IMG/VR virus record: IMGVR_UViG_3300030104_002421 | Location: 82,189-146,188 of that record | Strand: one strand, 5' to 3' | Source of the DNA: a virus | Length of the DNA stretch: 64,000 nucleotides | Part shown: positions 25,576 through 41,667 of the stretch, piece by piece | Layout of the letters: the number at the start of each line of letters is the position of its first letter | How positions within the stretch are numbered: the first letter of the stretch is position 1 | Notes under the pieces: model-generated | The model's database searches: none | Seen by the model: the letters and a program-made list of their open reading frames with translations, nothing else | What the model was told of the DNA's origin: nothing | Program-made: the position numbers and the translations under genes

Positions 25576-25938
25576 ATGGCATTAATTTATACACATAACA
25601 GTTCACCAAGACGCTTCAAGCGTGTTGTAAAGAACAAGAAATATTATGAAGCGCTTGCTGAGAGAGACAAGTTATTGAGACGATTAGGTATTGACCCCAA
25701 CAGAAAGATACCAAAATACAGACCAGAGAAAATGAAAATACATACTGCCCCTGTGGCTCAATTGGTAGAGCAGACGATTTGTAATCGTCAGGTTGCAAGT
25801 TCAAGTCCTGCCGGGGGCACCAAACCTGTTTCTAATTGGCGATTAGAAGAAAGCAAAAAGTTTACTGTAGCACCTGCTTATAATAAAGGTGCATATCAAG
25901 TAATAACAAAAGAAAACATAAAGGATATAGGCAAATGA
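25576..25938 (+). CDS. Conserved hypothetical phage protein containing an in-frame tRNA
   Basis: MALIYTH start; C-terminal TVAPAYNKGAYQVI...DIGK motif; stop overlaps next ATG. Confidence 0.7.
   Translation: MALIYTHNSSPRRFKRVVKNKKYYEALAERDKLLRRLGIDPNRKIPKYRPEKMKIHTAPVAQLVEQTICNRQVASSSPAGGTKPVSNWRLEESKKFTVAPAYNKGAYQVITKENIKDIGK
25747..25822 (+). tRNA. tRNA-Thr(UGU)
   Basis: GCCCCTG/CGGGGGC acceptor + ACCA, GCTC/GAGC D arm, GACGA-TTTGTAA-TCGTC anticodon arm, TTCAAGT T loop (one A.C mismatch in T stem), 76 nt. Confidence 0.88.
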
Positions 25939-35226: not shown

Positions 35227-35611
35227 AGAACTATCATTGTTAGTATTTTTACTAACATTTATTATAATTGTTTCAGTATGGACAACATCAGCAGCTGCTG
35301 AAGGACCAAAGTATGATTTATCAAAAATGAAGCAGAGACAAGTACCTGCTTATTGTGGAGATACTGGGTTTATGTTTGAAACATCATTAGAATTATTTAA
35401 TGAATTACCAATTGCAGGTGCTGAAGTTAGAACGGCAGGAATGCCAGATGCTCCAATCATAGGTATCATTACTCTAACTTATAACGAAGATAGAGGTTCA
35501 GGTACTGTAATGATGACTATACCAGCAATAGGCGAGACATGTGTTCTAGCATATGGTATGAATTGGCAATTTTATAACGAAATTCATGTTGAAGGTAATG
35601 AGAGTAAATAG
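35213..35611 (+). CDS. Hypothetical exported protein
   Basis: Signal peptide, VPAYCG...CVLAYG. Confidence 0.6.
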   Translation: MKKIKELSLLVFLLTFIIIVSVWTTSAAAEGPKYDLSKMKQRQVPAYCGDTGFMFETSLELFNELPIAGAEVRTAGMPDAPIIGIITLTYNEDRGSGTVMMTIPAIGETCVLAYGMNWQFYNEIHVEGNESK

Positions 35612-35808
35612 TATGGACGGCGGGGCAGTACCGCCCACCTCCACCACAGACACGGGGGTGAAATAGGTTCGACAGCTATTAGAAATCGTGCTGGAGTGGA
35701 TAGTCCAAAGACTTAAAACTAAAATAAAAGCAAACTTTAATGAGTATGCATTAGCAGCGTAGGCTGTTAGGGGTTTGCCTTGTACCTTGCAACAGAAACA
35801 AGGCACCA
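35605..35808 (+). ncRNA. ssrA: Circularly permuted (two-piece) tmRNA, tag (A)ANFNEYALAA
   Basis: Acceptor piece GGCGG-GGCAGTA-CCGCC-CACCTCC-ACCA ends 35646; 7-nt spacer; coding piece starts GGGGGTG at 35654 (G3.U70); tag ORF 35730-35762. Outer ends approximate. Confidence 0.92.
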
Positions 35809-37694: not shown

Positions 37695-38256
37695 CCATCA
37701 TGTTTTTGGTAATGGCACAAGCAGATTATCTATTGACATTGATAAACTTGAAGGTACGAAATATGGTTGCAATGCAATTTATAGAGATTATTATACAGAC
37801 TATCTTATTGGTAAAGATAAAAATATATGTTCAGAAATATTGGCGTCAGAATGTTGGCAAGACAGAAAAGTTGTAATGCAAACACAATGGCGTAATGACA
37901 GTTTAGTACGAGAGGCATATGAACATATTACATGGTGGAAAGATATAGTGGGTACAAATGATTATACAGATTGTGGTAGTGTTGCATTGACAATCGCTTC
38001 ACAAAATGCAAGTGATAATAATGACAAATATATATACATGTATGGTATGGACTTTGATGACCCCAATAGCAATAAGATTAATAACATATATCACGGTACA
38101 AGAAATTATATTGGTAGAATGGGTCAACGAAAAGGTGTAACAAAAGAGTTTATGAGAGTGTTTGATATATACAAAGATTTAAGATATGTACATGTAAACA
38201 CTAGAATGCCAGAACAATTGGCAGATAAGGATAATGTATTATGGCAGATGATATAA
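37687..38256 (+). CDS. Rossmann-like protein (Maf/MptE/sialyltransferase-like), paralog of 38897
   Basis: VFGNGTSR, YGCNAIYRD, YMYGMD. Confidence 0.55.
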   Translation: MNNHHVFGNGTSRLSIDIDKLEGTKYGCNAIYRDYYTDYLIGKDKNICSEILASECWQDRKVVMQTQWRNDSLVREAYEHITWWKDIVGTNDYTDCGSVALTIASQNASDNNDKYIYMYGMDFDDPNSNKINNIYHGTRNYIGRMGQRKGVTKEFMRVFDIYKDLRYVHVNTRMPEQLADKDNVLWQMI

Positions 38257-38900
38257 GAGTTGAATTTAGTAACACGGAAGTTATTAACTTTACAGCGTGT
38301 CCTATATTTCACACAAGCACAGACTTTAGATTAACTGATGATGAAATGCAAATACTCACGGAAGAGACTGGTGGCACACGGTTAGGCGATGGTATATATA
38401 GAGGAAAAGCACAAATAAGTAATAATCACAATGTATTAGACACACCCGGACTTGAAAGAGTACAACGATTTATGTTGCAGACAGGACAACACTTTGTAAA
38501 GAATACACTAGAAATAGAGAATGAGTTTTATCTAACACAAACATGGTTTACAAGAAACGATAAAGAAAGTGCTCATCATACACATACACACCCAAACAGT
38601 ATTTTAGCGATGGTCTATTATCCTCAATGTGAAAGTGGTGACATGGTAGTATCAGTAGAAAAAAATAATATGTTTCCACATTTTGATTTCAATTGGAAAT
38701 TATCCAAATATAATAATTTCAATGCTAAGTCATGGTCAATACAAGTACGAACTGGTGATGTAGTAATTTTTCCAGGTTATGTTGCACACAAAACAACACC
38801 AAATGAAAGTGATACAGTACGATATGCTTTGGGTGCTAATTTCTTTACAAGAGGCACATTTGGTACATATGAGAACACAGATTTATTGGAGTTGAAATGA
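38241..38900 (+). CDS. 2OG-Fe(II) oxygenase-like protein
   Basis: HHTHTHPNS, GDVVIFPGYVAH, RYALGAN. Confidence 0.8.
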   Translation: MADDIRVEFSNTEVINFTACPIFHTSTDFRLTDDEMQILTEETGGTRLGDGIYRGKAQISNNHNVLDTPGLERVQRFMLQTGQHFVKNTLEIENEFYLTQTWFTRNDKESAHHTHTHPNSILAMVYYPQCESGDMVVSVEKNNMFPHFDFNWKLSKYNNFNAKSWSIQVRTGDVVIFPGYVAHKTTPNESDTVRYALGANFFTRGTFGTYENTDLLELK

Positions 38901-39751
38901 GTAATTTATTTGTATTAGGTAATGGCGAAAGCAGAAAAAACATACCAGTTGATATGTTAAAGTATTCTGGTAAAGTATGGGGTTGTAATGCCATTTATAG
39001 AGAACATAAACTAGATGGTTTGATTGCAGTTGACCCTATGTTAGAACATGAAATATATCGTAGTGGTTATGCACACGAAAATTCTGTTTACTTTAGAAGT
39101 TGGGATACTATGCCTGCTGAACATTATGATATGATGATAGAGGCACAAACAAGTAACATGAAAAATCCAGAGATAAGAGAGTGGCGATATAATCCAGAAG
39201 GACATTATTTAAGTTTTGTTATACATGGTCAATCTACTGTTGATACAAATAGAGACAGTACAAGATGGAAAGGTGATGGTTTTGAAAATGTTTATGTGAG
39301 TTGGTTATATGGTAAAGATAAAATTACAATGTTAAAAGATATAATGGCAGATTATTATGGCGCTGCTTGGGAAGGTGATGTTATAGGACCAGAAGACCCA
39401 GGCTGGTCATCAGGTGCTACTGCCATGTATGTTTCTTGTAAAGTAGAGAAACCTAAAAAGTGTTATCTACTAGGCATGGACATGTATAGTACAACAGATT
39501 TTATAAATAACTTATATAAAAATTCTTACGGTTACCTAGAAAGCAAGGAAAATGCAGTAACACCACAGAATTGGGTAATCCAGATGGGGCGTGTTATGGT
39601 AAGATTTAAGGATATAGAGTTTATTAAGGTTAATCCTAGTGGAAATAGTGAGATTTCTCAAAGAATGCCACAATGGGATAGTCTTCCAAACATTACATAT
39701 ATGCATATGGAAGAATTTGAAAAAAACTTTAATTTAAGGCTTGACATTTAG
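38897..39751 (+). CDS. Rossmann-like protein (Maf/MptE/sialyltransferase-like)
   Basis: VLGNGESR, WGCNAIYRE, WSSGATA, YLLGMD. Confidence 0.55.
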   Translation: MSNLFVLGNGESRKNIPVDMLKYSGKVWGCNAIYREHKLDGLIAVDPMLEHEIYRSGYAHENSVYFRSWDTMPAEHYDMMIEAQTSNMKNPEIREWRYNPEGHYLSFVIHGQSTVDTNRDSTRWKGDGFENVYVSWLYGKDKITMLKDIMADYYGAAWEGDVIGPEDPGWSSGATAMYVSCKVEKPKKCYLLGMDMYSTTDFINNLYKNSYGYLESKENAVTPQNWVIQMGRVMVRFKDIEFIKVNPSGNSEISQRMPQWDSLPNITYMHMEEFEKNFNLRLDI

Positions 39752-39769
39752 CACAATTCGTGTTATAAT
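39741..39769 (+). promoter_or_regulatory. Consensus sigma70 promoter
   Basis: AGGC-TTGACA-N17-TATAAT. Confidence 0.85.
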
Positions 39770-39775
39770 GTTAAT

Positions 39776-39990
39776 AATAATAGCAAAAAGAACTAATTAC
39801 TCTTTTTGAATAGTGCAAGGAAGAGGGTTTCACCAGAGGCTCGAACTTGACTTCTCAGGGGTGGTACCCAGGTCAGTTGTGGAAAACACAAAGGGCAATA
39901 TCTCAAATACCAAGAGGGAGAAGGTTAAACTGATTTTAGGACTGGAATCCGGTTCAGTTTTTGTGGGTAATTCCATAGTCCCACCTATTT
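39776..39990 (+). ncRNA. Unidentified structured non-coding RNA (about 210 nt)
   Basis: GC-richer intergenic tract after a perfect promoter, six or more stems, two loop-loop complementarities. Confidence 0.65.
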
Positions 39991-39995
39991 TCTAT

Positions 39996-40003
39996 TATAA
40001 ATA
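39996..40003 (+). promoter_or_regulatory. T4-type late promoter
   Basis: TATAAATA upstream of gp32. Confidence 0.7.
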
Positions 40004-40068
40004 GATGTGTACGATTATATAGTACAAGAAAGAAGAATACAAATACAACGAATACAAGGAGATAAAAT

Positions 40069-40980
40069 ATGTCATTCGCAAATCTAAAACGAAGTCGAGG
40101 TAATTTCGACAAACTAACTAAAGAGTTAGAAAAAGTACAAACCCCCACAAACAATCAAAATTCTTCCTCAGATGATAGGTTCTGGAAACCAGAACTAGAT
40201 AAATCAGGTAATGGTTATGCTGTTATCAGATTTCTACCTGCTGTAGAAGGAGAAGAACTGCCTTGGGCAAGAGTATGGTCACATGCTTTTCAAGGACCAG
40301 GTGGTTGGTACATTGAAAATTCTTTAACTACACTAGGTCAAAAAGATCCAGTTAGTGAAGAAAATACTAAATTATGGAATACAGGCTCAGACGCCGACAA
40401 AGAAATTGCTCGTAAGAGAAAAAGAAAGTTATCTTACTTTACAAATATTCTTGTAGTGAATGACCCTAAGCATCCTGAAAATGAAGGTAAGGTGTTTCTA
40501 TACAAATTTGGTAAGAAAATTTTTGATAAACTTACTGAAGCAATGAAACCTGAATTTGAAGATGAAAAGGCAATCAACCCATTTGACTTTTGGGAAGGTG
40601 CTAACTTCAAATTAAAAATTAGAAAAGTTGATGGTTACTGGAACTATGACAAATCTGAATTTGAAACTACATCTAAATTGAAAGAGGCAGATGAAGAAAT
40701 AGAAGCGATTTGGAAAATGCAGAAACCATTAGTAGAATTTTCAGCACCAAGTAATTTCAAATCTTATGATGATTTAAAAGCGAAATTTGAAAAAACTGTA
40801 TATGGTACTGGAAAATCTGAAACAGCAGACCAAATTGATATCCCACCTGTAAGTGCTGCTGTTGAAGAGGTAAGTGAACAAGTAAAAGAAACTGTAGCGT
40901 CAGCGCCAATTGATACTCCCCCTAGTAATGATGACGAAGACGATACTATGAATTACTTTAGCAAATTAGTTAACGATTAA
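40069..40980 (+). CDS. gp32: Single-stranded DNA-binding protein (T4 gp32)
   Basis: DDRFWKP, GNGYAVIRFLP, WYIENSLTT, YKFGKKIFDK, NYDKSEF, acidic tail. Confidence 0.97.
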   Translation: MSFANLKRSRGNFDKLTKELEKVQTPTNNQNSSSDDRFWKPELDKSGNGYAVIRFLPAVEGEELPWARVWSHAFQGPGGWYIENSLTTLGQKDPVSEENTKLWNTGSDADKEIARKRKRKLSYFTNILVVNDPKHPENEGKVFLYKFGKKIFDKLTEAMKPEFEDEKAINPFDFWEGANFKLKIRKVDGYWNYDKSEFETTSKLKEADEEIEAIWKMQKPLVEFSAPSNFKSYDDLKAKFEKTVYGTGKSETADQIDIPPVSAAVEEVSEQVKETVASAPIDTPPSNDDEDDTMNYFSKLVND

Positions 40981-41049: not shown

Positions 41050-41667
41050 ATGATAAAAGACTATATAGCACACGATTTATTTCCAACACCTGTATATCAG
41101 AATAATATTCCTGTAACTACACTTGACGAAATAAGACAGGAAGAATATAGAGAAATACTACCTGATAGAAATGGTTACTATACAAAGAATACTAGAATAT
41201 TAGATAAGTACACAGACTTAAAAAAAGTTATACAAGAACACATTGATTGCTTTGTCTTTGAACATTTACTCATAAAAAGAATATATGAGTTTCCTATATT
41301 GAACAGTTGGGTCAATAGACATATACGAAGTGATTTCTCACATAAACATTTTCATTGTCATTCATTAATAAGTGGCATATACTACCTCAAGGCACCACAA
41401 GATGGTGGCATGCCAATGTTTTGGAAACCTGATGGTTTCTCAAATCTACTAGGTACAATGTTTAACTTTGAGTTAAGTGGTGATAATGGTATCAATAAAT
41501 TAGTATATAAAGTTAATGTAAAAGATGGTGATTTATTACTGTTTCCATCACATTTATATCATTCAGTAGAAGAAAGTAAAACAGACGAGGAACGATACTC
41601 TTTGGCATTTAATGTATGGGTCAAGGGTGAGTTTGAGGCCAGCGATATAAGCGAATTATCATTATAA
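41050..41667 (+). CDS. 2OG-Fe(II) oxygenase-like protein
   Basis: LFPTPVY, SWVN, HFH..SLISGIYY, LLLFPSHLYHSV, RYSLAFN. Confidence 0.85.
   Translation: MIKDYIAHDLFPTPVYQNNIPVTTLDEIRQEEYREILPDRNGYYTKNTRILDKYTDLKKVIQEHIDCFVFEHLLIKRIYEFPILNSWVNRHIRSDFSHKHFHCHSLISGIYYLKAPQDGGMPMFWKPDGFSNLLGTMFNFELSGDNGINKLVYKVNVKDGDLLLFPSHLYHSVEESKTDEERYSLAFNVWVKGEFEASDISELSL

Follow-up and report, generated by a model that had tools for sequence, protein, structure and literature searches.

A divergent manA-family RNA between a consensus early promoter and gp32 in a Pelagibacter myophage

Introduction

Weinberg et al. (2010, PMC2864571) described the manA motif, located in 5' UTRs, as a candidate riboswitch, and it has been an orphan RNA since then. 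Its occurrences in cyanophages have been listed (PMC9964418). A 2020 survey of pelagimyophages found no regulatory RNAs (PMC7029224), and a literature search of limited coverage yielded no report of manA in pelagiphages. In July 2026, cryo-EM structures of several manA RNAs appeared as a preprint (bioRxiv 10.64898/2026.07.01.735769). It reports pentamers in which the kissing loops L5-L7' and L8-L9' join different molecules, and another manA variant with the contacts L5-L7', L3-L8' and GNRA L6-P6'. Decamers and an icosahedral cage of 60 subunits are assembled from these pentamers, the cage being reported as the first natural RNA-only one of this kind, and the peripheral helices are reported to vary among manA RNAs.

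Two further RNA elements of T4-type phages invite comparison. The translational operator of T4 gene 32 is a pseudoknot leader of the small H-type, and the gp32 protein represses its own translation. The PeSL (promoter-early stem-loop) cassettes of T4-type phages, said to have been described by Arbiol et al. in 2010, reportedly consist of an early promoter followed immediately by a hairpin, at positions that vary between close relatives.

Here, we describe a structured RNA encoded directly upstream of gp32 in a window of 64,000 nucleotides, which is the whole stretch of DNA that was analysed. The source record is that of a Pelagibacter myophage of the HTVC008M/Mosig type.

Results

Locus, promoter and expression

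At this locus, a gene of 284 codons (38897-39751) that matches nothing in Pfam is followed by a promoter and then by the gene for the single-stranded-DNA-binding protein gp32 (40069-40980, plus strand; Pfam gp32, E 3.7e-44), the ribosome-binding site of which, AAGGAG, is found in the sequence at 40056-61 (+). Two genes of the 2OG-Fe(II) oxygenase family, at 38241-38900 and 41050-41667 (both +), bracket this group of 284-aa gene, manA RNA and gp32. The 317-nt gap between the 284-codon gene and gp32 has a GC content of 42.5%, compared with 27-39% in its flanks. The sigma-70-type early promoter (39741-39769, +) is composed of TTGACA at 39741-39746, a 17-nt spacer and TATAAT at 39764-39769, with a TG extension, and matches the consensus at 12 of 12 positions. 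The original prediction of a perfect promoter firing into a non-coding, GC-richer tract was therefore correct. From the position of the promoter, the transcription start is predicted at about 39776-39777. A TTGACA-N17-TATAAT or TATATT promoter was present at a fixed distance before every copy of the subfamily to which the window RNA belongs, and canonical cyanophage manA also has a promoter, 6-8 nt before its helix P1.

A marine RNA library contains a contig of 240 nt that begins at 39777 and follows the window sequence as far as 39995, with two differences; its start agrees with the predicted one, although a contig cannot prove the start of a transcript. In four runs, short RNA contigs (163-240 nt) lay over the manA RNA and none over the upstream gene (38900-39751). 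We draw no conclusion from the uncovered gene because contig cover can neither rank expression nor prove ends.

Family identity

Counted from the first to the last base of its terminal helix P0, the whole RNA comprises about 222 nt (39777-39998, +). The Rfam manA model (RF01745) aligned to 39786-39994 (+) over its full length, model positions 1-192, with 53.0 bits and an E-value of 7.4e-13. The gathering cut-off for RF01745 is 55.2 bits, and the window RNA thus lies 2.2 bits below a threshold which is operational and reflects no biological feature. When Rfam gathering thresholds were applied to the window, no match was obtained at the manA site, and the sole matches were a permuted tmRNA and a tRNA elsewhere. 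The former, a circularly permuted tmRNA at 35543-35807 (+), is located about 4 kb upstream of manA (RF04321, 98.4 bits; alpha_tmRNA RF01849, 74.7 bits), and the tRNA gene is found at 25747-25819 (+; RF00005, 68.2 bits). The manA RNA itself is present as a single copy in the 146-kb virus record.

Sister sequences scored above the cut-off, namely the homologous element of phage Mosig with 64.0 bits and an IMG/VR relative (L084) with 55.9 bits. Detection was also obtained in the reverse direction, using a covariance model (R1) that was built from five window-type sequences only and gave 218 bits with the window RNA. R1 recovered the canonical manA RNAs of P-HM2, P-SSM2 and an uncultured relative (L063) over their full length and at exactly the Rfam coordinates, with 39.9 bits and an E-value of 3e-10 for P-HM2; against the Rfam model these three RNAs score 160-186 bits. 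Based on the full-length Rfam match, the sisters above the cut-off and the reciprocal detection, we assign the RNA to manA as a divergent member. The original prediction had been unable to assign it and had named an Infernal search against Rfam as the check on its novelty; this search found a known family over the full length of the model (E 7e-13), which by that criterion refutes the claim of an unassigned RNA. In terms of sequence comparison, the family is one already known and the window RNA is a slightly sub-threshold member, or a subfamily, of manA.

Secondary structure

Alignment to the Rfam model places every helix of the nine-helix manA architecture in the window RNA, all on the plus strand. 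Helix P1 is a hairpin of 8 bp with a 9-nt loop (39784-39808; CAAAAAGA/TCTTTTTG) and shows compensatory changes in 5 of its 6 modelled pairs. P2 closes the core, its 5' strand AAUAG (39809-39813) pairing with CUAUU at 39985-39989. In the P3 domain (39817-39848), 39817-18 pairs with 39847-48 and 39825-30 with 39837-42, the latter around loop L3 (CACCAG, 39831-36); the G-U pairs of P3 settle the strand, which is plus. P4 (39851-39923), formed by CTTCTC at 39851-56 and GAGAAG at 39918-23 and with compensatory changes in 6 of 6 pairs, encloses the three hairpins P5, P6 and P7. P5 (39858-39869; GGG/CCC) carries L5, GUGGUA, at 39861-66, P6 (39872-39896; TTGTG/CACAA), placed by alignment to the Rfam manA model, carries L6, GAAAA, at 39882-86, and P7 (39902-39916; CTC/GAG) carries L7, AAAUACCAA, at 39905-13. 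The second domain comprises P8 (39927-39960; AAACTGA/TCAGTTT), in which 39927-33 pairs with 39954-60 and 39939-41 with 39948-50, and P9 (39963-39984; GTGGG/CCCAC) with its loop L9 at 39968-79.

A further helix, P0, is absent from the Rfam model. It is formed by the first bases behind the predicted start (AUAAUAG, 39777-39783) and the 3' tail (CUAUUAU, 39992-39998), and it is present in the minimum-energy fold of 39776-40000. In the subfamily P0 covaries, as seen in UAUAUGC/GCAUAUA, AUAAUGC/GCAUUAU and AUAAGCAA/UUGCUUAU. The stems proposed at the outset, which correspond to P1 and P4 to P9, are all present and each is a helix of Rfam manA; P2 (39809-13/39985-89), P3 (39825-30/39837-42) and P0 (39777-83/39992-98) had been overlooked.

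Comparative support

Single-sequence folding energy was unremarkable on either strand (z -1.08 and -0.27). Since a z of -1.08 is unexceptional, it is the comparative evidence and not the folding energy that carries the case for structure. Using a short conserved pattern, at least 118 IMG/VR contigs with the same subfamily were detected. A search with Rfam manA over 50 gp32-locus records gave 4 matches, as the fast prefilter missed most copies; these were recovered by direct search with the model. The alignment to R1 contained 82 copies, 66 of them distinct. Among the 66 distinct relatives, standard pairing was found in 93.3% of cells, compared with 40-52% when the partners were slid by 1-3 columns, and changes on both sides occurred in 41 of the 54 nested pairs. 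Covariation, which had been named beforehand as a check, is thus present, both in these 41 pairs and in the two loop pairs discussed below.

The same comparison bears on whether the structure could be fortuitous, or the RNA a small protein-coding gene. An open frame does exist (39813-40004, 63 codons, GTG start), and the unexceptional folding energy would suit a chance structure. However, all three forward frames contained stops in 49 of 54 distinct relatives, which indicates that the RNA is not coding; the substitutions in helices were compensatory, and insertions and deletions among the relatives were located in loops. We consider a coding gene or a chance structure extremely improbable and, given the stops in three frames, rejected the protein-coding reading. 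The non-coding, highly structured RNA with a strong promoter of its own that had originally been proposed is borne out.

Loop-loop complementarity

Two pairs of loops are exactly complementary in the window RNA. TGGTA in L5 (39862-66) matches TACCA in L7 (39908-12; UGGUA with UACCA in the RNA), and TGGAAT in L8 (39943-48) matches ATTCCA in L9 (39970-75) over 6 bp (UGGAAU with AUUCCA). The calculated duplex energies are -4.9 kcal/mol for L5-L7 and -5.8 kcal/mol for L8-L9. At the same places canonical cyanophage manA has UGGU/ACCA and CUGU/ACAG. In the subfamily, L5-L7 covaries from the UGGUA/UACCA of the window to UUGU/ACAG, UUGC/GCAG, UUAU/AUAG and UAGU/ACUA.

Because the loops vary in length, complementarity was assessed for each sequence against shuffled partners rather than by column-wise counting. 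For L5-L7, the mean run was 4.54 bp with the native partner and 3.55 bp with shuffled ones, and 0 of 2000 shuffles came as high. For L8-L9, the corresponding values were 4.05 and 3.76, and again none of 2000 shuffles reached the native value (3 of 2000 did when each distinct loop combination was counted once); in many relatives this pairing has just 3-4 bp, and its support is weaker than that of L5-L7. The control pairs L3-L8, L5-L9 and L7-L8 were flat. As relatedness among the sequences inflates such tests, we take them as supportive and not as proof. L3-L8, the pairing seen in one cryo-EM variant, gave no partner-specific signal in this test, 631 of 2000 shuffles reaching the observed value, but this says little because L3 is nearly invariant.

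The two kissing-loop pairings of the original prediction are therefore exact in the window, conserved and partner-specific (0 of 2000 shuffles each). Its view of them as the tertiary fold of one molecule retains the complementarity but is itself doubtful, since the cryo-EM structures of the family show contacts between molecules. We mapped L5, L7, L8 and L9 of the preprint to the loops of the window by helix order and by L6 as the GNRA loop. On that mapping, both loop pairs of the window would be the assembly interfaces of the manA family.

If the loops instead formed pseudoknots within one molecule, the RNA would fold compactly and act as a monomer. The 2010 consensus drawing of manA indeed carries the mark "pseudoknot?" (PMC2864571), L5 and L7 are situated on the same junction, L8 and L9 belong to neighbouring hairpins, and the covariation is as compatible with pairing inside one molecule as with pairing between molecules. 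Against this, cryo-EM of several manA RNAs reports L5-L7' and L8-L9' as intermolecular contacts in pentamers (bioRxiv 10.64898/2026.07.01.735769), the oligomers having been obtained in vitro at high RNA concentration and with other members of the family. On balance, the monomeric fold appears unlikely to us, and pairing between RNA copies is the reading that we prefer.

The sequence of L8 further divides the copies. With L8 of the GGAA type (9 copies, including the window), the mean match was 5.4 bp to L9 and 3.1 bp to L3, whereas with L8 of the GGUA type (44 copies) it was 4.6 bp to L3 and 3.8 bp to L9. The two types, which stem from few independent events, may fit two modes of assembly, echoing the two sets of interfaces seen by cryo-EM.

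Downstream context and genomic neighbours

Immediately behind the RNA, and overlapping the 3' strand of P0, is a late-promoter motif of the T4 type, TATAAATA (39996-40003, +). The motif is not enriched in the whole window, with 13 occurrences found against 13.8 expected, and its relevance rests on its conserved position alone. It followed the RNA in 26 of 58 distinct downstream contexts. In the gp32 group it is 0-5 nt away, which is the arrangement of the window, and gp32 starts 64-101 nt after the RNA; it is farther off in L114 (30 nt) and in two terminator-type copies (36 and 49 nt). The late promoter separately serving gp32 that had been proposed earlier thus has a counterpart at a conserved position.

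In 27 of the 58 contexts (L144, L129, L102, L092 and others) a strong intrinsic terminator was found 6-11 nt after the RNA. In one example the stem is AAAGAC...GUCUUU, the loop is UUCG and there is a U tract; UUCG loops are frequent, with A and U tracts flanking. In the remaining distinct contexts the RNA runs into nearby genes. With a terminator in about half of the distinct copies, those copies are stand-alone genes made up of promoter, RNA and terminator. Between the RNA and gp32 in the window, neither a terminator nor an alternative pairing was found, so that early transcription would run on into gp32. As no terminator or processing site sets the 3' end here, it may be that the RNA is present solely as the leader of an mRNA. 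The suggestion that the RNA might be a stand-alone ncRNA is strengthened by the relatives that have a terminator of their own.

The first ORFs past the RNA, beyond the terminator where there is one, encode gp32, a cold-shock protein, rubrerythrin, redoxin, mannose-6-phosphate isomerase/cytidylyltransferase, a radical SAM protein and families that match nothing in Pfam. Mosig-type copies have only 16-25 nt between the RNA and the next start codon. Among cyanophages, manA precedes purL and hsp20 in P-SSM2, follows pstS in P-SSM4 and, with a terminator, gp23 in P-HM1, and is found directly before gp32 in P-HM2. The mannose-6-phosphate isomerase/cytidylyltransferase gene, the type of gene behind the motif's name, lies beyond the terminator of a window-type manA in L092 (10770-11576, -). 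In one other record (L042) a tRNA gene (739-809, +; 62.5 bits) takes the place of the manA RNA upstream of gp32.

In GenBank, small hypothetical proteins overlap the manA or manA-like RNA of P-SSM4 (L089 1556-1729), P-HM1 (L090 1466-1642), P-HM2 (L091 1579-1753) and HTVC008M (L002 2234-2404). These four ORF calls are probably spurious.

A constant promoter and RNA next to variable neighbours indicate a self-contained RNA gene, and they argue against a dedicated riboswitch or gp32 operator. As a riboswitch or leader, the RNA would control early gp32 in cis, a ligand or other signal shifting its fold and hence the translation or stability of the message. This agrees with the Cis-reg entry of manA in Rfam and with the 2010 description as a 5' UTR riboswitch candidate (PMC2864571); moreover, the early transcript carries the RNA as a leader for want of a terminator before gp32, gp32 is also the gene directly behind canonical manA in P-HM2 and L063, and the start codon is close by in Mosig-type copies. 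However, the downstream genes are unrelated and make up no coherent regulated set, and the strong terminators in 27 of 58 contexts begin 6-11 nt past the fold without overlapping it. The P-HM1 copy, after gp23 and with its terminator, also speaks against such control. In the window no alternative pairing was seen with the ribosome-binding site, which is about 60 nt away beyond the late promoter, and in our literature search of limited coverage no manA ligand has been reported since 2010. We judge cis-acting control of this kind to be improbable.

An autoregulatory operator resembling the T4 gene 32 pseudoknot leader, to which gp32 would bind and repress its own translation, would account for the position directly upstream of gp32 and for the A/U-rich, unstructured spacer after the RNA. 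But the same RNA also stands alone with a terminator or before unrelated genes and is not exclusive to gene 32, late gp32 transcripts starting from the motif at 39996-40003 would lack it, and its nine-helix manA core is no small H-type pseudoknot. Given the heterogeneous downstream genes and the terminators in 27 of 58 contexts, this reading was rejected and strikes us as very improbable.

Discussion

We consider it probable that the window RNA is a divergent member of manA carried by a Pelagibacter myophage as a cassette of promoter and RNA, with L5-L7 and L8-L9 most likely pairing between molecules. In the sequence of events that we propose, host RNA polymerase would start at the consensus sigma-70 promoter, at about 39776-77, and the transcript would at once form the terminal helix P0, the 5' hairpin P1 and, from P2-P9, a core with two domains of several helices each. 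By analogy with the cryo-EM structures of other manA RNAs, L5-L7 and L8-L9 would then most likely pair between RNA copies, and such intermolecular pairing would build pentamer-based rings or cages rather than a one-molecule pseudoknot. Promoter and RNA would together act as a self-contained cassette, which in about half of the distinct relatives is completed by a terminator of its own. In the window, early transcription would read through the RNA into gp32, there being no terminator, while late transcription of gp32 may start at TATAAATA just behind the RNA and so bypass it.

As to its role, we would guess at an early, abundant transcript that acts as a scaffold or decoy and does not sense a metabolite. 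Taken further, manA of SAR11 myophages might be very abundant early in infection and form rings or cages in the cell through L5-L7' and L8-L9', possibly in two modes, and copies without a terminator might bundle gp32 messages as tails; in this full form the proposal is speculative and, we think, rather unlikely to hold.

With these results the manA family includes RNAs from SAR11 phages, whose hosts are the most abundant bacteria in the sea. A cassette of promoter and RNA, in many cases completed by a terminator, speaks against calling the RNA a riboswitch. The covariation of L5-L7 and L8-L9 fits intra- and intermolecular pairing alike, and it suggests that natural selection acts on the loop contacts through which assembly proceeds in vitro. 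Cultured systems for testing this are available, with HTVC008M or Mosig as the phage and Pelagibacter HTCC1062 as the host.

Comparison with known systems

The window shares with the T4 gene 32 operator a structured RNA upstream of gp32 and, behind this RNA, an A/U-rich spacer. Unlike that operator, the window RNA is a large multi-helix structure, and it also occurs at sites without gp32 and as a gene on its own. The PeSL cassettes reportedly share the order of early promoter and hairpin, but promoter and hairpin of the window are the front of a conserved RNA of 220 nt, which makes the link to PeSL only a lead.

Closer at hand, a manA-like RNA occupies the same slot in HTVC008M (L002 2278-2464) and in the closest gp32 relatives (L004-L008, about 1170-1500), whose gp32 proteins are 82-87% identical in amino-acid sequence. 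The slot, between the homologue of the 284-aa gene and gp32, is shared with the HTVC008M type, and so are the conserved promoter and late-promoter spacer. The HTVC008M-type RNAs gave weak full-length matches to Rfam manA (25.9-31.6 bits). Their body could not be aligned with the window type over most of its length, and their P7 region appears shorter; judging by its sequence, this RNA seems to be the product of a cassette swap and not of divergence.

Several features set the window RNA apart from canonical manA. In the P3 region, the window has GCAAGGAAGAGG...ACCAG...CGAACUUGA where canonical manA has CUGAAUAA...UAAGG. L6 is a GAAAA pentaloop and not a GNRA tetraloop, whereas canonical manA carries GAAA, GCGA or GCAA; some members of the subfamily do have GAAA at L6, and the P6 tetraloop is a peripheral feature. 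L8-L9 is UGGAAU/AUUCCA in the window compared with CUGU/ACAG in canonical manA. Unlike Rfam manA, the subfamily has a leader of roughly 10 nt that forms the extra helix P0 with the 3' tail. Finally, its hosts are SAR11 phages, in contrast to the cyanophages of canonical manA.

Common to both are the order of the helices P1-P9 and a series of landmarks of RF01745: AGUG after P2, an L5 of the GGUGGUA type and an L7 of the ACCA type, UUG-GGGUA in P9 and the closing strand CCU. The complementarity of L5 with L7 (consensus GGUGGU with ACCA) and of L8 with L9 is likewise found in both. Both also occur in T4-like marine myoviruses and have a sigma-70 promoter immediately ahead of the RNA, and the range of neighbouring genes, which includes gp32 (P-HM2) and mannose-6-phosphate isomerase, is the same.
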